A stretch of 49,376 nucleotides of DNA from a virus (Duplodnaviria > Heunggongvirae > Uroviricota > Caudoviricetes), in IMG/VR virus record IMGVR_UViG_2531839433_000005, positions 1 through 49,376 of that record. The stretch is one strand, 5' to 3'. The notes beneath the pieces are model-generated. The model worked only from the letters and a program-made list of their open reading frames with translations, ran no database searches and was not told the origin of the DNA. The translations under genes were made by a program, and so were the position numbers. The stretch's first letter is position 1, and the number at the start of each line of letters is the position of its first letter. This document shows positions 3,894-22,018 of this stretch, piece by piece.

Positions 3894-4016
3894 TTTGTTT
3901 TAACCTCATGACAGATTTAAGGATGAACAAATCCCTGCCATTGCTGGCATATAAGAATCAAATCTGATGTATTCATTAAGCTGAATGTCGTATTGTGGCA
4001 GTTATTTTATTACTGC

Positions 4017-4238
4017 TCACCATGACTCTGCTTTTACAGGTAAACCATCACGACCAAGGAAGACTTTAATCATGGTTTCCTTAATACAGTGTTGTGTGGA
4101 AAAATCACGAATATAGAGCCGTTGTTTTTTAATGTTGTTTACCGAAGCAATATATGTTCTTCCTTTATGAATAACATAATCACCGGGAGTCACGCACTGA
4201 CGAGGAATCTCATCAGTTCCGAAGTGATGAGCAATCAT
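4017..4238 (-). CDS. Hypothetical small protein
   Basis: ORF with GGAG Shine-Dalgarno upstream of the second in-frame ATG; first ATG at 4250 is an alternative start. Confidence 0.4.
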
Positions 4239-4800
4239 AATTATCTCCATTTTTACAAATGAACTTTGTTGATGCGGTGCCTGGTGCCTCCAGGTGACGT
4301 TAACCAGTTAACAATTAACGCCGGATACAGAGAACCCACCCATAACACTGTTTTTGGTTTTAACTGTTCCGCGTGCGCTTAGCCGCATTCACCGCATCAC
4401 AAAATTCACTTTAAAAAGGGCGGCAGAGCAGTCACGGAGTAAACTGATACCGCCAAACGCCACCAGAAAATTGATAACAGAGGGCGTTGTAGCGGGGTTG
4501 TCACTTAAGCGTATGGTCAACCTGACAACCCGGTGTCCTCAACGGGGAAGGAATAACCCCGCCATACTTACCGCCGCGCCATTTCGCGGATTGCCACAAC
4601 CGGAAGCGCACGGTCGAATTAAATTTAACGACACCGTACAGTGAGACGAACTTCGCCGTGCGCTTTCGCGTTATGCCCTGACTTTTCAGGAAAATGCCCT
4701 TTCAGTAAACTGTCAGTGCCGGATGCTCACCCGTGTCCGGCGCACGCACTCCACCTGACCCGTGGAGAACTCCTTAATTACCAACCCTCAGGAGGGTGAA

Positions 4801-6964: not shown

Positions 6965-7195
6965 ATGAAAAAATCAGAAGTATTAGGCTATTTTGGCGGA
7001 GTTGTTAAAACAGCCGCAGCTCTAGGAACGTCAAAAACCACAGTCAGCATGTGGGGGGAAGAGGTTCCGTGGAAATGGGCGTTGCTAATTCAGGCAGTCA
7101 CTGCCGGGGCGCTCAAATATGAGTTACACATACCGACGGTTGTCATTCCCGGTTCTGATCATAATCCGCCTTCTAACCAAGGGGGGGATTCATGA
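6965..7195 (+). CDS. Cro-like small HTH regulator
   Basis: 76-aa ORF divergent from cI with GGAG RBS; resembles Rac-type YdaS/Cro proteins as recalled. Confidence 0.6.
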   Translation: MKKSEVLGYFGGVVKTAAALGTSKTTVSMWGEEVPWKWALLIQAVTAGALKYELHIPTVVIPGSDHNPPSNQGGDS

Positions 7196-7617
7196 AAATC
7201 AAGCATGAACACATCCGCATGGCGATGAATGCCTGGGCGCATCCGGACGGCGAGAAAGTACCGGCTGCAGAGATTACCAAAGCGTATTTCGAGCTGGGAA
7301 TGACGTTCCCGGAACTGTATGACGACAGCCATCCGGAAGCCCTGGCTCGCAATACCCAGAAAATTTTCCGCTGGGTAGAGAAAGACACCCCTGATGCAGT
7401 TGAAAAAATTCAGGCGTTGTTACCAGCGATCGAAAAGGCAATGCCACCTTTGCTGGTGGCCAGAATGCGCAGCCACAGTTCTGCTTATTTTCGGGAGCTG
7501 GTGGAGACGCGGGAGCGACTGGTGAGAGACGCTGATGATTTTGTCGCAGTGGCAATCGCCGGTTTCAATCAGATGAACCGCGGTGGCCCGGCGGGAAATG
7601 CCGTGGTGATGCACTAA
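7192..7617 (+). CDS. CII-like / YdaT-like regulator
   Basis: 141-aa ORF translationally coupled to cro (ATGA overlap); N-terminus MKIKHEHI.. resembles the Rac YdaT family as recalled. Confidence 0.5.
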   Translation: MKIKHEHIRMAMNAWAHPDGEKVPAAEITKAYFELGMTFPELYDDSHPEALARNTQKIFRWVEKDTPDAVEKIQALLPAIEKAMPPLLVARMRSHSSAYFRELVETRERLVRDADDFVAVAIAGFNQMNRGGPAGNAVVMH

Positions 7618-10675: not shown

Positions 10676-11230
10676 TCAATTATCTAAAATTGTGCTAAAT
10701 CTTTTTATTACCATTAAGAACGTTATAACAGTGATAAAAAAGGATGCATAGGATAAAAAGCTAACAATATATGCAGGTGCGCGAAAATACCATTTCATTA
10801 AATCTACTGCATTGTCAGGCAGGAAATATATTATCACTGAAAATATAACCAATACTATTGAAGTTAATATTGCATAAGCGACGTTGTGGCATAACTGCTC
10901 ATATATGGTTTTGTTAGTGTTTAATGATATCAATTTGTCTCGGGATTTGTTTCCTTCAATTATGTCTGATATCTTAGTGATGGTTTTTTGTTTTTGTTCA
11001 TAAATCATTATTACTGCACTCATTAATAGTGCTGTTGTAATAGCCCCGAAGTTAACGAAGACGGAAGCAATTGCCGGTTTCATTATTCCGTATGTCCAGC
11101 ACAGAACGAAAGAAAGAGATAACGGAACAATAAAATGTACGATAATGTCGCTCATCAACATTGTTCCACGCTGATCTGACATTGTTTTGTAGTGTTTTAT
11201 TATTACACCCAGCACATTTATTTTATTCAT
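10676..11230 (-). CDS. Multi-pass integral membrane protein (candidate effector of two-gene cassette)
   Basis: 184 aa with about four hydrophobic helix-length segments; start overlaps upstream stop (ATGA); strongly AT-rich codon usage unlike flanking phage genes. Confidence 0.6.
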   Translation of the reverse strand: MNKINVLGVIIKHYKTMSDQRGTMLMSDIIVHFIVPLSLSFVLCWTYGIMKPAIASVFVNFGAITTALLMSAVIMIYEQKQKTITKISDIIEGNKSRDKLISLNTNKTIYEQLCHNVAYAILTSIVLVIFSVIIYFLPDNAVDLMKWYFRAPAYIVSFLSYASFFITVITFLMVIKRFSTILDN

Positions 11231-12159
11231 ATAATCACCCCTTTGTTTCCGCTATGCAGTTCTAACAATATATCATTAGAAAGGTTTTTTATCGTGTCAT
11301 GAAGTGCTGTTAGATCAGGTATGCCTGTTAATGGGTCGATTTTTAAATCATTATCATCTAACTCTGCGGAAATTCCTTTTTTTAGTATGGTCTCATAATT
11401 GAAAACGACAGTCCGACTGCCGAGTTGTAAGCTTACTTTTATTGCATCACATTTATCTTCAATAATCTCAATGATGTTTCCTATATTCTTGTTTCTTAAA
11501 TCCCTGAAACTTCCGAACATGCCATTGTTTGCTTTTATTATTAAGTCTGTCTTGATGTTTGTTTTGTTTTGACCAAAGGAATCAGCAATGTCTTTTGGTG
11601 CTTTATATCCTTGAGCCTTAATTTGTTTTAATTCGGAATTGAGAATATATTGAGGGATTTTCTTATGATGTAATGGATTGATTCTTGCTTCGAGTTGAAA
11701 TTTGTTTTTTAGATATTCAGTGATAGAATCAGAAAGGACACCTCGAGCAGAAATATTATCGCAAGAGTGGAATGCAATAATTCCTTCTTCAAGGGTGTCT
11801 GGTAGGTATATTAAAATATAACGTTCTTTGAGTGTTACATCATAAGCAGTTGTCCTATAGTGGATTTTTTTGAGTTTTACATCTTTTATTTCACTGCTTT
11901 CTCCATATTTCCCAACTTTTATATAACCATATATAATTTTCTTTGAGTTATCAAAGTGAAGTTTAGCGTGTTGTTCCAGAGATATTTTAGTTTTGGATAC
12001 GCCAAACTCGATAGGGGTGTTTTTATATAGAGTAAAATAATCAACAAAAAGTTCATATGCCGTTTTTTTATTACTTAAACCCAATTCATTAAGTTTTTTG
12101 CTGGCTCGACTGCCTTTATGGGTCAATACGCGGAATGAATAGAAATTAACGCTGTGCAT
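11227..12159 (-). CDS. Cytoplasmic protein of unknown function (candidate sensor of two-gene cassette)
   Basis: 310-aa Lys/Ile/Asn-rich ORF, no recognisable catalytic motif; translationally coupled to downstream membrane protein. Confidence 0.6.
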   Translation of the reverse strand: MHSVNFYSFRVLTHKGSRASKKLNELGLSNKKTAYELFVDYFTLYKNTPIEFGVSKTKISLEQHAKLHFDNSKKIIYGYIKVGKYGESSEIKDVKLKKIHYRTTAYDVTLKERYILIYLPDTLEEGIIAFHSCDNISARGVLSDSITEYLKNKFQLEARINPLHHKKIPQYILNSELKQIKAQGYKAPKDIADSFGQNKTNIKTDLIIKANNGMFGSFRDLRNKNIGNIIEIIEDKCDAIKVSLQLGSRTVVFNYETILKKGISAELDDNDLKIDPLTGIPDLTALHDTIKNLSNDILLELHSGNKGVII

Positions 12160-12489
12160 GAAAAGTCCTTTTGAACATATAGGAGTATACTAGAACATAA
12201 ATAGATGCAATGCATAAAGGAAAAGCTACCGCAGGGCGAACTCACCCACCGATAACTCTTAACTGGTTGTTTGTAAAAGATAATACATAAATTTGGGTCT
12301 GTGTAAAGAGGTAAGCATCGTCAGGGCAAGGGAGATGTGTTAGGCAATATTGGTAAAATTTACGTTGAGGATAAAAACGGTTTGCGGGAAAAGGAGAGTT
12401 AAGTAGAATTGCTGCGGGTGCTTGAGGCTATCTGTCTCAGGCATGAACACCAAAAGGCAGATAGAGAAAAGCCCCAGTTAACATTACGC

Positions 12490-12560
12490 GTCCTGCAAGA
12501 CGCCTAACATTAATCTGAGGCCCAATCTATGTCTCACAAATGTAGGTTAGCCTCTTACGT
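12490..12560 (-). ncRNA. Putative Sok-like antisense RNA (position inferred, not seen directly)
   Basis: In hok/sok loci the antitoxin RNA is antisense to the mok translation-initiation region (mok ATG at 12529); coordinates approximate. Confidence 0.25.
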
Positions 12561-12585
12561 GCCGAAAGGCAAGGAGAAGCAGGCT

Positions 12586-12741
12586 ATGAAGCAGCAAAAG
12601 GCGATGTTAATCGCCCTGATCGTCATCTGTTTAACCGTCATAGTGACGGCACTGGTAACGAGGAAAGACCTCTGCGAGGTACGAATCCGAACCGGCCAGA
12701 CGGAGGTCGCTGTCTTCACAGCTTACGAACCTGAGGAGTAA
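12586..12741 (+). CDS. hok: Hok/Gef-family type I toxin
   Basis: 51-aa product MKQQKAMLIALIVICLTVIVTALVTRKDLCEVRIRTGQTEVAVFTAYEPEE matches the Hok/Gef family (HokD/RelF-like as recalled); upstream in-frame 70-codon extension from 12529 corresponds to a mok-like leader. Confidence 0.85.
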   Translation: MKQQKAMLIALIVICLTVIVTALVTRKDLCEVRIRTGQTEVAVFTAYEPEE

Positions 12742-12808
12742 GAGACCAGGCGGGGGCGAAATCCCTCGCCACCTCTGATGTGTCAGGCATCCTCAACGCA
12801 CCCGCACT

Positions 12809-12833
12809 TAACCCGCTTCGGCGGGTTTTTTAT
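12809..12833 (+). terminator. Rho-independent terminator (copy 1)
   Basis: Hairpin AACCCGC-TTCG-GCGGGTT followed by T-run. Confidence 0.6.
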
Positions 12834-12880
12834 TGGTTGACAAAATTATGAATATGCACCAATATCTTGGTTGACAAAAG
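12834..12880 (+). promoter_or_regulatory. Candidate promoter with direct-repeat operator
   Basis: TTGGTTGACAAAA at 12834..12846 and 12867..12880 (33 bp apart); -35 TTGACA 12837..12842, candidate -10 CAATAT 12860..12865. Confidence 0.4.
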
Positions 12881-12914
12881 TCGTTTTTTGCACGGATTAG
12901 GCGGAGAAGTGTCT

Positions 12915-13508
12915 ATGCAGAACCATCCATTCCCTTGGGAGTTCTTTCCTGAGTTAACAGAGGAGCGTTTAACCATTATAGCTGAGGAGTTGCTCAGGAT
13001 ACAGGATATTACTCATGAGTTATTGTCATCGCCCTATGATGATAATTACACTCGTGGTGGTTGTACATTTGGGCGTCAGCGGCAGGCGTTGCTACAAATG
13101 TGCGTACGAAAGACATATGACTGGTTAAGACTACTTAATCCTGGCATGGATCTTACGTTTTCAATTGGGAATGTCCCTATTCGTTTCTTTACTGATGACG
13201 CAGATAACCCCAAGAAACGCGGTTTTTTCAAAAGAAATGATGCTGATCGACTCTTTGAGTCAGAGGAGACTACTCCAACTATGCATCGCTTTGTGGTTGA
13301 AAAGCCTGAATTTGAAGGCGAGGGTGGTAGAGTCATTTTTAATGGCTATAACGTGTTTGGTGAGATCGTGTCAACTTGGACATATGGTGCGGACCGTGTT
13401 GTTATGCTGAACTCTGTCGATGATGTACCTCCAGCACCGGTACCTATCGAACTAGAACCTATCAGTGCGTCTAAGACTGAGAAGGAAAAGAAACAAAATA
13501 GCAAATAG
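12915..13508 (+). CDS. Hypothetical protein (module gene A)
   Basis: 197 aa from ATG with GGAG RBS (TTG at 12867 is an alternative start); no recognisable motif. Confidence 0.55.
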   Translation: MQNHPFPWEFFPELTEERLTIIAEELLRIQDITHELLSSPYDDNYTRGGCTFGRQRQALLQMCVRKTYDWLRLLNPGMDLTFSIGNVPIRFFTDDADNPKKRGFFKRNDADRLFESEETTPTMHRFVVEKPEFEGEGGRVIFNGYNVFGEIVSTWTYGADRVVMLNSVDDVPPAPVPIELEPISASKTEKEKKQNSK

Positions 13509-13518
13509 TGGGTGAAAT

Positions 13519-14640
13519 GTGTTTAACGGTACTAATTTAAGACTTGCTCGTCTGTATCACGAGCTATCTCTGGAGCAGGTTGCTGAGAAGGTTGAAAAAA
13601 CACGCCAGTATGTACAGCGACTGGAGTCTGGTTCAGCTACTCCATCCCCAGAGCTTATAAATAAATTAGCCGAGGTTTTGCGCGTGAAGCCCGCCTTTTT
13701 CGAAGGGCAGGAACATTCTCCTGTTAATGAAGAGATTGTACATTTTCGTAAACGCGCCTCGACAAGGATGTCAACGAAGCTATCAACACTCGCTAAGGCT
13801 GAGTTTTATCGTCGTTTTATTGATGTATTTGAAGATAACCTTAATTTGTCACCTGTTCGATTTCCTGAATTTCGTGTCCATACACAAGAAGATATCGAGC
13901 GAGCGGCAGAAAAATGTCGTATTGAGTGGGGCTTAGGCTTTGGCCCAATTGAAAATATGACTCGCCTTGCCGAGAAACTTGGGGCGTTTGTTACTTCATT
14001 TGACTCCGTTTCGGATGAAGTAGATGCACTGTCTGTTCCTCTACGAAGGCCTTTTATTGTTCGAAATACAGCTAAAAATTCACCTTGTAGGCAACGCTTT
14101 GATATTGCTCATGAGGTTGCCCATTTGATTCTTCATGAAGGAATTTCTACTGGGGATAGATTAACTGAATCCCAGGCAAACCGTTTTGCCTCTGCTCTGT
14201 TGCTTCCCAGAACGTCGATGGCGAAATATTTTCCAAGACCTGTGGGGGGGAGGATAAATTGGCAGGGACTAAGCCAATTTAAGTTGACATGGAAAGTAAG
14301 TAAGGCTGCCATTGTTTACAGGGCTCATCAATTAGGACTTTTGACTGATGAGCAGTACAGAACTGCATTTATGGGGTTGAAACGGAAAGGGGAAGCTATT
14401 GATGAAAAAGAAGATTATCTAATCCCTCATGAGCGTCCTGAGTTATTCCGTCGGGCTTTATCGTTTTTATTTGAAGAGTTAGGATACGACCCACAGCGTA
14501 TAGCTGATGAAATGGATATAGAAGTGGACATTTTTTATGAGTTAGCAGGAGATGATCTTCCTGCGGTTCATGAACTGCCAGGAAGTGGTGATGTTGTTTC
14601 ACTACAATCTTACCGAACTCTTAGAGGCAAAATTCACTAG
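13519..14640 (+). CDS. XRE-family HTH fused to ImmA/IrrE-type zinc metallopeptidase (module gene B)
   Basis: N-terminal HTH (LSLEQVAEKVEKTRQYVQRLESG); HExxH motif HEVAHLILHE; GTG start 10 nt after the upstream stop. Confidence 0.75.
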   Translation: MFNGTNLRLARLYHELSLEQVAEKVEKTRQYVQRLESGSATPSPELINKLAEVLRVKPAFFEGQEHSPVNEEIVHFRKRASTRMSTKLSTLAKAEFYRRFIDVFEDNLNLSPVRFPEFRVHTQEDIERAAEKCRIEWGLGFGPIENMTRLAEKLGAFVTSFDSVSDEVDALSVPLRRPFIVRNTAKNSPCRQRFDIAHEVAHLILHEGISTGDRLTESQANRFASALLLPRTSMAKYFPRPVGGRINWQGLSQFKLTWKVSKAAIVYRAHQLGLLTDEQYRTAFMGLKRKGEAIDEKEDYLIPHERPELFRRALSFLFEELGYDPQRIADEMDIEVDIFYELAGDDLPAVHELPGSGDVVSLQSYRTLRGKIH

Positions 14641-14643
14641 GCA

Positions 14644-14668
14644 TAACCCGCTTCGGCGGGTTTTTTGT
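14644..14668 (+). terminator. Rho-independent terminator (copy 2, same hairpin as 12809..12833)
   Basis: AACCCGCTTCGGCGGGTTTTTT repeated. Confidence 0.6.
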
Positions 14669-14741
14669 TTTACGTATTCTGGTTTACAATCTACAGGCCA
14701 GCCTGAACAACTGGCACCTGCTGCGCCAGCAGAGAAAACCG

Positions 14742-15014
14742 ATGGCGCACAATACCAAACATCACAATTCTGATACCGACCTTGCCAGCTGGCACGGGCG
14801 GCGTTCTCATACATTCAAATATGACTGGTACCAGCATGCTCCATGCACTGAAGAACAGGCCGAATGGCTGATTCAGAACTACCGCAGGCGTGGGTACGAC
14901 TTTCAGAAAGACCTCAGCCCTGACTTCCGACACTGGATAATTTCTGTCAGGCTCCCTTATTCCGAACGCCCACCGCGTCCGTCCCGCACATTCCAGCAAC
15001 GCATCTGGAGGTAA
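14742..15014 (+). CDS. Hypothetical protein
   Basis: 90-aa ORF immediately upstream of and adjacent to the DUF968 gene. Confidence 0.4.
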   Translation: MAHNTKHHNSDTDLASWHGRRSHTFKYDWYQHAPCTEEQAEWLIQNYRRRGYDFQKDLSPDFRHWIISVRLPYSERPPRPSRTFQQRIWR

Positions 15015-15015
15015 C

Positions 15016-16062
15016 GTGCGGGTATTACTTCGACCTGTTCTGGTGCCGGAACTTGGGGTGGTTATCGTTAAGCCAGGTCGTGAATCCATGCAGGTATTCC
15101 ATAACGGCAGAGTGCTGGTTGAACCGGAGCCAAAAAGCATGCGCGGTCTGCCGTCCGGAGTCGTTCCTGCTGTTCGCCAGCCGCTGGCGGAGGATAAATC
15201 ATTACTGCCATTTTTCAGCGATGAGCGGGTGATTCGTGCTGCTGGTGGTGCTGGTGCATTGTCTGACTGGCTGTTACGCCACGTTAAATCCTGCCAGTGG
15301 CCTCATGGTGACTATCATCACAGTGAAACCGTCATACATCGTTATGGTACCGGCGCAATGGTGTTGTGCTGGCACTGCGACAACCAGCTGCGTGACCAGA
15401 CATCCGAATCACTCGAGCAACTTGCTCATCAAAACCTGTCAGCATGGATGATTGACGTCATACGCCATGCAATGAATGGCACGCAGGAGCGGGAATTATC
15501 GCTGGCTGAATTATCTTGGTGGGCAACCATAAATAACGTAGCGGACGCACTACCGGAGACGGTATTACGTCGTTCGCTGGGATTGCGCGCGGAAAAAATT
15601 CGCTCAGTATACCGCGAGAGCGACATCGTGCCGGGAGAGCAGACTGCCACCAGCATACTGAAGCAGCGCACAAAAAATCTTGCGCCGCTGCCTCACGCCC
15701 ACCAGCAAAACCCGCCACAGGAAAAGACGGTGGTCAGCATTGCTGTTGATCCGGAGTCTCCGGAATCTTTCATGAAACGACCTAAACGTCGCCGCTGGGT
15801 TAACGAGAAATACACACGCTGGGTGAAGACACAGCCGTGTGCGTGTTGTGGTAAGCCAGCCGACGATCCCCATCACCTGATTGGTCATGGTCAGGGCGGA
15901 ATGGGGACAAAATCTCACGATATTTTTACGCTACCGCTGTGTCGGGAGCATCACAACGAGCTTCATGCGGATCCGCTGGCGTTCGAAGAAAAGCATGGTT
16001 CTCAGGTTGATTTAATTTTTCGTTTTCTTGATCACGCCTTTGCAACTGGCGTGCTTGGGTAA
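15016..16062 (+). CDS. DUF968/YdfU-like protein with C-terminal HNH-type nuclease motif
   Basis: 348 aa; C-terminal CACCGK..HHLIGHGQGGMGTKSHD..CREHHNELH Cys/His cluster; position equivalent to the nin region. Confidence 0.6.
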   Translation: MRVLLRPVLVPELGVVIVKPGRESMQVFHNGRVLVEPEPKSMRGLPSGVVPAVRQPLAEDKSLLPFFSDERVIRAAGGAGALSDWLLRHVKSCQWPHGDYHHSETVIHRYGTGAMVLCWHCDNQLRDQTSESLEQLAHQNLSAWMIDVIRHAMNGTQERELSLAELSWWATINNVADALPETVLRRSLGLRAEKIRSVYRESDIVPGEQTATSILKQRTKNLAPLPHAHQQNPPQEKTVVSIAVDPESPESFMKRPKRRRWVNEKYTRWVKTQPCACCGKPADDPHHLIGHGQGGMGTKSHDIFTLPLCREHHNELHADPLAFEEKHGSQVDLIFRFLDHAFATGVLG

Positions 16063-17330: not shown

Positions 17331-17406
17331 GGCCCTTTAGCTCAGTGGTGAGAGCGAGCGACTCATAATCGCCAGGTCGCTGGTTCAAATCCAGCAAGGG
17401 CCACCA
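17331..17406 (+). tRNA. tRNA with CAT anticodon (Ile2/Met type)
   Basis: 76 nt; acceptor GGCCCTT/AAGGGCC, D-arm TAGCTCAGTGG, anticodon loop CTCATAA, T-loop GGTTCAAATCC, 3' CCA; resembles E. coli ileX as recalled. Confidence 0.75.
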
Positions 17407-17407
17407 A

Positions 17408-17484
17408 CCGTCACCAGTTCATCAGGAAAGAGCGTCAACCCTTTAAGTTGAGTGTGCGAGGTTCGAGTCCCCGGTGGCGGTCCA
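17408..17484 (+). tRNA. Atypical tRNA-like element (possible anticodon TTT; may be a pseudo-tRNA)
   Basis: Acceptor CCGTCAC/GTGGCGG with one G-U pair, T-loop TTCGAGT, 3' TCCA; D-arm and anticodon loop (C at position 33) are non-canonical. Confidence 0.35.
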
Positions 17485-17486
17485 GT

Positions 17487-17562
<76 letters not shown>

Positions 17563-17565
17563 TAT

Positions 17566-17640
<75 letters not shown>

Positions 17641-19402: not shown

Positions 19403-20974
19403 TTACTGAGAGCTCAGATCAACTTTCCAGGGCAACAGATCGCGTACCCGGTTTGCCGGCCAGTCCTGGATATGTTCAATGACGTAGCGCAGCCACTTTT
19501 CTGGCTCCACATTGTTCAGACGGCATGTGCCGATCAGCGAGTACAACACCGCCGCATGTTCACCACCGCTGTCGGAACCCGCGAACATCCACTTTTTCCG
19601 GCCTACGGCCACTCCCCGTAAGGCGTTCTCTGCGATGTTGTTGTCGATTTCCACCCAGCCATTACTGCAGTACACGTTCAGTGCATCCCACTGTTTCAGC
19701 AGGTATGCGAACGCTTTTGCCGTATCTGAGTGACGCGACAGTGTTTTCATCTGTTGCTGTATCCAGTCATACAGTGACTGCATCAGTGGCGCGGCTCTGG
19801 TTTTTCTTGCCGCCAGACGCTGTTCTGCTGAACAGCCCCGGACCTCTGCCTCGATGGCATACAGTTCACCGATACGCTGCAGGGCTTCCGTGGTGATGTC
19901 GGTGGGCGCTCTTGCATGCACATCGTGGATTTTTCTCCGGGCATGAGCCATACACGCGGCTTCCGTTATTCTGCCGGATTCGTATAACGCCCGGTAACCA
20001 CCGTAAGCATCGGCCTGAAGCACACCGCTGTAACCGGCCAGGTGATTTTGTGGATGGATACCTTTCCGGTCCGGACTGTACGCGAACCAGACCGCCGGGG
20101 GCATCTGTGAACCGGCGTTACGGTCATCACGGACGTAGACCCACAGCCGGGCTGTCCGGGTTTTACCGCTGCCCGGCTCCTGGACCGGGACGGGGATATC
20201 ATCAGCATGGACTTTACCGGGCATCAGCACATACTGGCGCAGGACGTCATACAGCGGCTCCAGTAGTTCAGCAACGGCACCTGTCCAGCGCCCCAGTGTG
20301 GCACGGCTCAGCTCCACACCCTGACGGCGGTATATCTCTGACTGGCGGTATAACGGCAGATGGTCTGCATATTTTCCGGTGACGACATGGGCCAGGAGCC
20401 CCGCTCCGGCATAACTGCGTGCAATGGGTTTTGAAGGTACTGGTGCCTGCACGATATGGTCGCACCGACAACAGGCCAGTTTCGGACGTTGTGTTTCGAT
20501 AACCTTAAAGGCGCTGCTGATAAGCTCCAGTTGCTCTGACACATCACATCCCAGAGAACTGAGTTCACCACCACAGGCAGGACAGCATTCCTCTTCCGGC
20601 CGGATAACCCGGGTTTCACGGGGAAGTGAGGCCGGTAACGGTTTACGGGCTGAAGACTGGCGCAGGGCGGATGGCAGTACCGGGTCATATTGCTCACCCA
20701 GCGTTTCCGCCATTTCTTCCTGAAGTGCGCTGATTCGCTCCTGTGCTTCCTGTATCTGCCGTTCGGTTTTTGCACGAAGTTTTTCTGAGCTTTTACCGAA
20801 CTGCATACGTTGCAGTTTCGCAACCAGCGCCTTCAGCCGGTTGATTTCGGAAGCATAAGCCGCCACCCGCTGTGAGAGCAGGCGGTTGTATTCAGCCATC
20901 TGGCGGATGGTGTCCTGTTGCGTCTGCAACAGTGCCCGCAGGCGGGCGTTCTCATGAGCAAGTGAGGTGTCCAT
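19403..20974 (-). CDS. IS66-family transposase (TnpC/orfC)
   Basis: 523 aa; N-terminal coiled-coil/leucine zipper, CxxC zinc-finger-like motifs, DDE-type core as in IS66 transposases. Confidence 0.85.
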
Positions 20975-20993
20975 ATCCTCACTTTACAACGGG

Positions 20994-21341
20994 TTATATG
21001 CGGATTCCAGCGCGTTCCGTTCGTTTCGGGTGCTTCCAGTTGATACCTTCAAGAAGCATGGATAACTGAGCCGGAGTAAGGTGCACCTTGCCGTCACGGG
21101 TGACTGGCCAGACGAAGCGGCCCCGCTCCAGGCGTTTGGTGAAGAGGCACAGTCCGTCACTGTCAGCCCACAACACTTTTATCTGGTCACCCCGGCGTCC
21201 GCGGAAGATGAACAGGTGTCCGGAGAACGGGTCATCCTTCAGGACGTTCTGAACTTTTGATGCCAGGCCGTTAAAGCCATTTCGCATATCGGTGATACCT
21301 GCAACCAGCCAGATACGCGAACCTGCAGGGAGAGATATCAT
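20994..21341 (-). CDS. IS66 accessory protein TnpB (orfB)
   Basis: 115-aa ORF in the characteristic position, overlapping the orfA stop. Confidence 0.8.
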   Translation of the reverse strand: MISLPAGSRIWLVAGITDMRNGFNGLASKVQNVLKDDPFSGHLFIFRGRRGDQIKVLWADSDGLCLFTKRLERGRFVWPVTRDGKVHLTPAQLSMLLEGINWKHPKRTERAGIRI

Positions 21342-22018
21342 CAGTGGCTGCTCCCTTTTATTTCGCGGATAAGTGTCTGTAATAACGCCGGCGTCAGTTT
21401 ACCTTTAAGCCTGAGAGTTCCGGCCGGCAGAACCAGCTCACAACACAGACTGTCGGACGGTGTATTTATCTGCTCTGGTTCCTGTGCGGGGGCCGGGATT
21501 TTATTATCCGGCTCCGGCGTTAACGTCACGGGAAGCAGTGCCGGCATATTTTTTCCGGAAGGCAGCAGGCCACCTTTCCGGTATTGATGGCGCCAGTTGA
21601 AGAGCAGGTTATCGTTGATTCCGTTTTCCCGGGCGATCTGCGCCACACAGGCTCCGGGCTGCAGTGACTGCTCCACTAAGGCGATTTTAAACTCATAAGG
21701 GAAGTTGGGCCGCCGGGGACGTTTTTTTACCACGGGGGCTTCGGATATAACGGTGCTTTCAGGACGTACGACTGGTACCGTGGAAAATTGTCCGTAAAGG
21801 CAGGCATCAAGTTCCTGCTCCGACATGCCTGCGGGCAAAGGCCACGAAAGGCCAGCTCTCCGAAAGCGCACGAACATACTACAAACTGTTGATTTTGGTA
21901 CACCCAGGCGACGCCCGGCCACAACCCGGGGTAAATGTTCTTCAAAGTGAAGACGTAAAGCTTCAGTGATCCAGGTCCGGTGTTTCATACGATAGTGTCC
22001 ATTAAAAATGATGGACAT
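21341..22018 (-). CDS. IS66 accessory protein TnpA (orfA)
   Basis: 225-aa ORF at the upstream end of the IS; HTH-like N-terminus. Confidence 0.7.
   Translation of the reverse strand: MSIIFNGHYRMKHRTWITEALRLHFEEHLPRVVAGRRLGVPKSTVCSMFVRFRRAGLSWPLPAGMSEQELDACLYGQFSTVPVVRPESTVISEAPVVKKRPRRPNFPYEFKIALVEQSLQPGACVAQIARENGINDNLLFNWRHQYRKGGLLPSGKNMPALLPVTLTPEPDNKIPAPAQEPEQINTPSDSLCCELVLPAGTLRLKGKLTPALLQTLIREIKGSSH

Follow-up and report, generated by a model that had tools for sequence, protein, structure and literature searches.

A RosmerTA cassette between twin terminators at the hokD site of a lambdoid prophage

The locus and its two-gene module

The window—the whole stretch of DNA analyzed here, with a length of 49,376 bp—corresponds to positions 1 to 49,376 of IMG/VR record IMGVR_UViG_2531839433_000005 and is a lambdoid prophage that leads from int/xis over replication genes to head and tail genes. 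It is identical (100%) to positions 57366–106741 of NZ_CP025859.1 from Escherichia coli strain 504239, an enterotoxigenic E. coli (ETEC) from human stool in India. The locus under study features, in this order, hok/sok, the terminator T1, rmrT, rmrA, the terminator T2, a gene for a protein of 90 amino acids (aa), a ydfU-like DUF968 gene, rusA, and Q. The module between the terminators, at 12915–14640, is by homology a RosmerTA toxin–antitoxin (TA) system, that is, a member of an already known defense family. The whole cassette is probably a moron that was captured by short-homology recombination within a terminator shared with hokD.

RosmerTA is an experimentally validated anti-phage TA family, in which the antitoxin is a zinc-peptidase/helix-turn-helix (HTH) protein and the partner toxins are diverse; neutralization of toxicity by RmrA and protection against phages are known from other members (10.1101/2022.05.11.491447; PMC10440598). 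In the window, rmrT and rmrA are co-oriented and separated by 10 nucleotides (nt), and the pair is kept together in more than 80 loci. RmrA combines an XRE-type HTH (Pfam HTH_3, residues 7–61, 1.5e-12) with a Peptidase_M78 domain (residues 151–269, 8.3e-17), and its translation carries HEVAH, a Zn-peptidase motif of the HExxH type. The product of rmrT has no Pfam or NCBIfam family. Its AlphaFold2 model (pLDDT 80) repeatedly, if weakly, matches PD-(D/E)XK restriction endonucleases—NaeI, SwaI, ThaI, and BcnI—and features the invariant acidic residues D94, D95, and E129; RmrT may be a nuclease-like toxin. Judged by family membership, this rmrTA allele would be active in defense.

The cassette starts with an exact 13-nt direct repeat, TTGGTTGACAAAA, at 12833 and 12867, with a −35-like TTGACA and, about 10 nt further on, TGCAC after each copy. 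The same dual arrangement—GTTGACAAA-N10-11-TGCAC(C), with the copies 33 to 34 bp apart—precedes rmrT in about 55 relatives, which range from Enterobacterales to Pseudomonas and Halomonas with RmrA identities down to about 40%. A consensus promoter scan made no call at the dual TTGACA motif, the −10 being weak; the region 12833–12900 is probably a promoter together with RmrA operators. The cassette extends from this conserved dual motif to a T2-type terminator of its own and thus has the anatomy of a moron.

Junctions of the insert and its empty counterparts

Exactly two copies of TAACCCGCTTCGGCGGGTTTTTT are present in the window (12809–12831 and 14644–14666), spaced 1835 bp apart. The exact repeat is 23 nt long (TAACCC...TTTTTT) and grows to 26 nt if one mismatch is admitted (12809–12834 and 14644–14669). 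The 22-mer AACCCGCTTCGGCGGGTTTTTT within it (12810–12831 and 14645–14666) has no further match in the 49,376 bp at up to three mismatches and no match in 100 dinucleotide-preserving shuffles. Both copies are predicted intrinsic terminators: a 7-bp stem with five G–C pairs, a UUCG loop, and a U-run, the hairpin having a centroid energy of −11.8 kcal/mol in T1 and of −13.8 kcal/mol in T2. T1 lies 68 nt after the stop codon of hok and T2 3 nt after that of rmrA, the HTH-peptidase gene. A preliminary description of the window had put the hairpin behind hok at 12809–12833 and behind the second gene of an HTH-peptidase module at 14644–14668, and was right in both cases to within 2 nt.

The same hairpin with the upstream context CAC(T/G)TAACCCGC follows hokD at every site examined—be it empty or occupied—which marks T1, by its sequence context, as the terminator of hok itself. 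In the phages vB_EcoS-640R1 and Evi, hok is followed by a single terminator and then by the 90-aa gene. E. coli TUM1880 and CREC-2 feature such a site on a matching flank haplotype: their sequence reads ...CACTT AACCCGCTTCGGCGGGTTTTTT GTTTTACGTATTCTGG... and continues into the gene of the type found at 14742. This junction joins the left context of T1 in the window, via one repeat that likewise has six T's, to the right context of T2 in the window. Taking 1835 bp out of the window gives the sequence at loci L309 and L310, with agreement down to the six-T run; L001 and L002 are further empty sites. The inserted segment can be written as 12832..14666, its breakpoints inside the repeat not being resolvable to an exact position.

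When a synthetic junction was made by deleting 12832–14666, 2764 of 5426 complete E. coli genomes matched at least 80% of its length in one place; among the matches listed, the match is mostly a single contiguous piece, and the best identity is 97.2%. The cassette itself is carried by 23 of these genomes, always on the chromosome and with at least 99% identity, and has no match in 72,556 plasmids. All 23 carriers feature the hok-side junction at 100% identity as well as the right junction, the latter with a different right flank in one of them. Many bear strain names that we take to be those of human or pig ETEC, such as TW11681, TW10598, B2C, UMNF18, FMU073332, and ETEC4090. Together with ten viral contigs, this amounts to 33 near-identical copies, all of them at the hok site.

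The preliminary description had envisaged relatives with hok, one terminator, and then the gene at 14742; these exist in TUM1880 and CREC-2, and the corresponding junction was recovered from about 2764 of the 5426 genomes. It had also considered that relatives might all carry the module with a single terminator copy, or that the terminator was reused independently of any insertion. Neither applies: each of the 23 carriers has the left and the right junction, no relative features the module with one terminator copy only, and the junctions fall inside the terminator.

Ancestry of the cassette and of its terminator

The guanine–cytosine (GC) content of the cassette is 42–45%, compared with 50–56% in ydfU and the phage genes beyond. 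In ten IMG/VR contigs, the cassette is 99.7–100% identical to the window; the identity of the same contigs to the window is 39–100% in the hok segment, 87–100% in the region of the 90-aa gene, and 80–100% in ydfU. On such sequence measures, the cassette is a recent foreign insert. In L013 and L017, the 640R1-type haplotype takes over on the right flank precisely where T2 has its U-run; in the other contigs with a diverging right flank, the divergence starts further right, from about 75 nt past T2 (L015 and L014) up to within ydfU (L012, L016, L018, and L039). Because the haplotype switches lie at T2 or further right, the spread appears to have gone via the terminator and via ordinary flanking homology.

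Relatives of the cassette outside hok contexts were drawn from viral contigs, species genomes, and public assemblies, and the search in other genomic contexts suggested by the preliminary description has indeed brought up the same cassette family. Many of these relatives feature a hairpin 10 to 25 nt past the rmrA stop codon. L019 (RmrA 88% identical) has AACCCGCTTCGGCGGGTTT after rmrA, and L313 (RmrT 77%, between a tRNA 3′ end and an integrase gene) has the exact 21-mer. L312 (Phytobacter, RmrT 87%) has GCCTGCTTCGGCAGGT, a stem of CCTGC...GCAGG that amounts to a compensatory double change, and the hairpin of L031 reads CCCAC...GTGGG. The relatives in the P2 hotspot (L314–L319) have ATCCCGCTTCGGCGGGAT after rmrA, and the pattern ATCCCGCTT(C/T/A)GGCGGGAT is found in L020–L029, L051, L075, and again L314–L319. 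Within about 260 nt upstream of rmrT, a hairpin of the T1/T2 type is absent from the non-hok relatives; L313 has a hairpin with the same stem and a different loop about 150 nt upstream, after the tRNA. T2 belongs to the cassette, since the non-hok relatives close with this hairpin, unchanged or with compensatory changes, and have it at the 3′ end only. As judged from this sequence comparison, the hairpin is a vertically inherited and structurally constrained part of the cassette lineage. That T2 was made as a copy of T1 at insertion is not favored, because the non-hok relatives already end in the hairpin and have none upstream.

The surroundings of these relatives are varied. The slot of P2-like phages between gpA/ParM-StbB and the portal gene holds a 56%-identical RmrT together with its RmrA (L314–L319, gene at 4001–4600), and the tRNA–integrase junction of L313 holds the 77% relative at 1–2030. 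One and the same cassette lineage is thus found in a number of classical cargo slots that belong to unrelated elements.

Other cargos behind the hokD terminator

The hok site was sampled in 80 hok-bearing viral contigs, which add up to 848,858 bp and were read on both strands. With at most one mismatch, the terminator core ACCCGCTTCGGCGGGT was counted 89 times at the hok site and not once in the remainder of these contigs, which contain 161 simple terminator-like hairpins. The sites comprise 32 empty ones, 18 of the rem type, and 12 to 13 in which a cargo is followed by a second copy. At least five cargos other than the window cassette end in such a copy: two further Rosmer types, a Fic/DOC-family gene, a split pair of HTH and M78-peptidase genes—which resembles ImmR/ImmA or a split RmrA—and a gene of 130 aa (Table 1). 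The 5′ context of the second copy in these cargos is (c/g)atACCCGC or aaaACCCGC, compared with cttAACCCGC at hok, and the 3′ flank is one of three local haplotypes of the empty-site or rem type. A cargo-type 5′ context joined to a local 3′ context is the pattern expected of a chimera between the terminator of the cargo and that of the target.

Bracketing by copies is not general among the cargos at the site: rem (L008 and L009), an AT-rich segment of 290 bp (L006/L323), and the L303 type come with the hok copy only. The spacing from terminator to terminator in L194 (2816–4651) and L280 is 1835 bp as in the window, with an RmrA of 43% identity, and this agreement is probably a coincidence. In L007 (ETEC1738), the hok-to-rem interval features a 9-nt unit, GTATTGTTT, in about 13 tandem copies at approximately 1530–1650, adjoining a frameshifted rem.

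Probable capture of the cassette within a shared terminator

The best explanation, and a probable one, is the capture of a RosmerTA moron at hokD by short-homology recombination within the terminator common to both. In this model, rmrTA would be a self-contained moron placed directly after the hokD terminator, its two genes rmrT and rmrA being framed by a promoter/operator pair and an intrinsic terminator that belong to the cassette. T1 and T2 would be identical because the cassette lineage already possessed the same hairpin class (ACCCGC-TTCG-GCGGGT followed by a U-run), so that two pre-existing look-alike terminators—that of hok and that of the cassette—would have served as substrate. The insertion would most likely have been resolved by recombination inside the shared stretch of 16 to 23 nt. 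One route would be a single crossover between a circularized cassette with one terminator and the hok terminator; the other would combine a homologous crossover inside the terminator with a second join, illegitimate or by microhomology, at the U-run. Both routes would give the same product sequence. A single crossover between circle and terminator would leave the target enlarged by the cargo and by exactly one repeat unit, which is the arrangement seen in the window. The insert carries neither a recombinase gene nor terminal inverted repeats, which points to general recombination of host or phage, and the executor could be host RecA or a phage Rad52-type recombinase, both tolerant of short homology. 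RecA-dependent recombination needs roughly 20–30 bp, and phage Rad52-type recombinases tolerate short and diverged homology. We infer the recombination mechanism and its intermediates from the sequences.

With T1 intact, the 3′ end of the hok mRNA would be unchanged and transcription would still be terminated there. T2 would end the rmrTA transcript and insulate the downstream gene series toward Q. The dual TTGACA motif just after T1 would be the likely rmrTA promoter with the operators for the HTH of RmrA, allowing for autoregulation as in other HTH antitoxins; the promoter and terminator activities of these elements are predictions. After insertion, recombination within the terminator or at more distant points of the flanks would have carried the cassette from one divergent lambdoid prophage to another. 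In a lysogen, rmrTA would act as a TA defense of the abortive-infection type, by analogy with other RosmerTA members.

The empty sites, the double junctions in 23 of 23 carriers, and the location of the junctions in the terminator support the proposal of the preliminary description that the module of about 1.8 kb was acquired by recombination within the terminator. Its picture of a duplicated terminator as insertion scar holds for the junctions, which are inside the terminator; the right copy is not a simple duplicate, the relatives having carried the hairpin already. The module had further been called a discrete mobile cargo cassette: discrete it is, and mobile only in a passive sense—with no recombinase, no terminal inverted repeats, and a single locus.

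Several observations weigh against capture within the terminator. The right-flank haplotype switches at T2 in only two of the ten viral contigs, and ordinary flanking recombination, as far as the haplotypes suggest, explains much of the spread between prophages. A matching terminator upstream of the cassette is absent from the donor-like contexts of L019, L312, and the P2 type, so that the left junction needs an illegitimate join or a circular intermediate, both of which are postulated. All 33 near-identical copies share one locus, and no movement from terminator to terminator is documented. Three kinds of cargo—rem (as in the Qin prophage of K-12), the 290-bp segment, and the L303 type—go without a second copy. 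Finally, the exact 21-mer is widespread, with at least 120 stretches in IMG/VR, and among 80 loci with it, most are unrelated to hok; for a design this common, terminator identity alone could be convergence.

Convergence is central to the explanation that the cassette was inserted by random illegitimate recombination at a harmless spot after a terminator, and that T1 and T2 agree because both follow a common optimal design of GC stem, UUCG loop, and U-run. The mostly unrelated contexts of the 21-mer would fit, as would the facts that the cassette lineage had its hairpin before arriving at hok and that the donor-like relatives offer no detectable homology for the left junction. Random insertion is nevertheless unlikely, as the window equals an empty site plus exactly one repeat unit with no extra nucleotide at the junctions. 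In addition, at least six cargo types at the hok site end in the same core, and outside the hok site this core is absent from 849 kb of these phages, which hold 161 hairpin terminators.

The direction of events could also be reversed: the arrangement terminator–cargo–terminator would then be the older one and the empty sites would be deletions between the 23-nt direct repeats. Repeats of such length can mediate deletion, and the resulting empty site would match those observed, but roughly half of the genomes have an empty junction, with several flank haplotypes represented, whereas the cassette is found in 0.4%. It is also nearly clonal (99.7–100%) across diverged backgrounds, with a GC content unlike that of its flanks, and different unrelated cargos occupy the same slot, all of which makes the reversed direction quite improbable. 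An occasional loss of the cassette by repeat-mediated deletion is likely and compatible with capture within the terminator. Hardly credible is an autonomous mobile element—a transposon or an integrase- or integron-type cassette—that duplicated its target, even if a direct repeat surrounds a discrete insert and the hairpin superficially resembles attC or REP-type targets. The insert consists of two open reading frames only, both RosmerTA, and has no terminal inverted repeats; the duplication of 23–26 nt is far beyond the lengths made by transposases; the hairpin is a perfect terminator stem, unlike the imperfect attC; and all copies are at a single locus, with none on 72,556 plasmids. A self-mobile element was rejected on account of the missing recombinase and terminal inverted repeats.

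A wider version of capture within the terminator can be offered only tentatively, being rather doubtful. In it, the hokD terminator would be an integrase-free landing pad, to which defense and TA cassettes ending in ACCCGC-TTCG-GCGGGT would be addressed, traveling in the form of small circles or of linear fragments by short-homology recombination through host RecA or phage enzymes of the Red/RecT type. If true, a terminator of 16 to 23 nt would shuttle RosmerTA-like cassettes between unrelated elements, namely lambdoid phages, P2 hotspots, and tRNA–integrase junctions. This would be the lambdoid counterpart of the stem-loop shuffling of T4-type phages described below and a concrete answer to how defense systems hop between hotspots without common flanking genes.

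Features and surroundings of the locus

The features of the locus and the other cargos found at hok sites are collected in Table 1. In an Rfam scan of 11500–15500, sok alone is above threshold. One further match, to isrK—a small RNA of Salmonella prophages—at 12750–12831, is sub-threshold with 31.8 bits compared with a gathering score of 50 and spans the 3′ untranslated region of hok and T1. Just upstream of hok, a two-gene block on the minus strand (10676–12159) encodes proteins of 184 aa and 310 aa and has a GC content of 30–34%. It has zero matches in Pfam, NCBIfam, and PADLOC and is covered by PHROGs only, with phrog_15250 and phrog_15676, whose function is unassigned. Homologs of its genes with 74–77% identity likewise adjoin hok in L257. 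The block looks like a second accessory insert or a candidate defense insert.

The prophage is partly decayed by appearance: a cro-like gene and gpJ are frameshifted, and an element of the IS66 family, ISCro1, is inserted after the lysis genes. Three tRNA genes (Ile, Thr, and Gly) lie downstream of Q. Taken together, these features occupy the regions 6965–7208, 17331–17640, 19403–22018, and 38497–41975.

Table 1. Features of the rmrTA locus in the window and other cargos followed by a second terminator copy at hok sites
Feature	Position or locus	Strand	Evidence and remarks
hok/sok regulatory region	12416..12591	+	Rfam sok RF01794, 118.6 bits vs gathering score 59, E 1.3e-27
mok/hokD type I toxin reading frame	12529..12741	+	Pfam HOK_GEF 3e-23; RefSeq: hokD 12586-12741
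T1, native hokD intrinsic terminator (predicted), left repeat copy	12809..12831	+	Hairpin prediction; same upstream context after hok in empty-site prophages
Inserted segment relative to empty sites	12832..14666	+	1835 bp = cassette + one repeat copy; alignment to L309, L310, L001
Cassette promoter/operator region (putative)	12833..12900	+	Two TTGGTTGACAAAA-N10-TGCAC copies, 34 bp apart
rmrT, RosmerTA toxin, 197 aa	12915..13508	+	PADLOC RmrT PDLC03929, 5.5e-93, full length; phrog_5786
rmrA, RosmerTA antitoxin, 373 aa	13519..14640	+	PADLOC RmrA PDLC03943, 8.2e-201, residues 1-368 of 370
T2, rmrTA operon terminator (predicted), right repeat copy	14644..14666	+	5′ context cassette-type, 3′ context target-type
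Conserved phage gene, 90 aa	14742..15014	+	phrog_1212, 1.1e-36; directly after the single terminator in empty-site phages
ydfU-like DUF968 gene, conserved right flank	15016..16062	+	Pfam DUF968 5.4e-77
Second Rosmer type	Phage Tritos/L358 (L003/L358)		RmrA 32% identical, toxin unrelated; second copy after cargo
Third Rosmer type	L194/L204/L280		RmrA 43% identical; second copy after cargo
Fic/DOC-family gene	L269, T1 at oriented position 1655, cargo +338..+832		Second copy after cargo
Split HTH + M78-peptidase pair	L330, +178..+1016 after T1		Second copy after cargo
130-aa gene, function unassigned	L004/L005		Second copy after cargo; T1 truncated to ACCCGCTTCGGCGTTT, no longer folds

Comparison with known systems

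The module matches the RosmerTA systems described before (Millman et al. 2022; Ernits et al. 2023), as it features the same two-gene operon, with a small toxin gene upstream and an antitoxin of HTH and ImmA/IrrE M78 domains, and is likewise prophage-borne. There is no essential difference; the toxin family (PDLC03929/phrog_5786) is one without a known mechanism. The module itself counts among known defense systems; its site, a prophage cargo slot of the typical kind, is a well-documented if fairly ordinary insertion hot spot. As far as the literature was searched, the recurrent bracketing by terminators at the hokD terminator has not been described.

In integrons, attC hairpin repeats bracket exchangeable gene cassettes at a fixed platform. 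The hok site is similar in having hairpin repeats around exchangeable cargo at a fixed platform, but differs from integrons in lacking IntI and an array and in featuring a cassette with its own putative promoter and a hairpin with a perfect GC stem and U-run.

The moron concept for lambdoid phages is said to go back to Juhala, Hendrix, and coworkers. The window cassette is likewise an accessory unit between genes that are adjacent in relatives, with deviating base composition, its own predicted terminator, and a putative promoter. For classical morons, random illegitimate recombination is assumed, with the regulatory sequences taken to have no part in mobility (PMC2839356). At the hok site, in contrast, the terminator of the cargo matches that of the target, and the junctions are inside the terminator, repeatedly.

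The PeSL elements of T4-type phages are promoter/terminator stem-loops that flank non-essential genes and ORFans, with a single motif and no gene in sister genomes (Arbiol et al. 2010, PMC2839356; PMC4122927). Homologous recombination between the repeats has been proposed to lead to insertion, deletion, and mini-circles without a dedicated recombinase (PMC2839356; PMC4122927), and PeSLs were explicitly contrasted with the morons of lambdoid phages (PMC2839356). The hok site resembles them in that a stem-loop brackets the cargo and is present just once where cargo is absent; this also applies to the five other cargos. PeSLs are composites of promoter and stem-loop of about 100 bp, with many per genome, whereas the hok site features 16–26 shared nt and two copies in 49 kb; a dispersal through hyperplastic regions, as with PeSLs, is not seen, the core occurring 0 times off the hok site in 849 kb. 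In addition, PeSL circles were shown by inverse PCR, whereas the hok-site cassette is known here as sequence and resides in a lambdoid prophage.

The hotspots of P2 and P4 are likewise fixed intergenic slots in temperate phages that hold alternative defense or TA cargos or nothing (PMC9122126; PMC13586616), and the P2 slot between gpA and the portal gene holds a 56%-identical relative of the RmrT of the window. The hok site belongs to another phage family and is another slot, which reaches from the hokD terminator to ydfU, upstream of Q. How systems are transferred between unrelated elements is left open in the hotspot papers, which make no mention of terminators (PMC9122126; PMC13586616), and the route of defense systems between elements without shared flanking genes is stated as unknown (PMC13586616). 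A cassette terminator that matches the terminator of the target is a simple and testable candidate for the short homology required. The hok site offers a clean natural experiment in this respect: the empty site is precise, the cassette is nearly clonal while the prophages around it have diverged, and at least six cargos end in the terminator of the target, the core of which is missing from the rest of these phages. The interval between the hok terminator and ydfU is a convenient place to mine for further accessory or defense genes.

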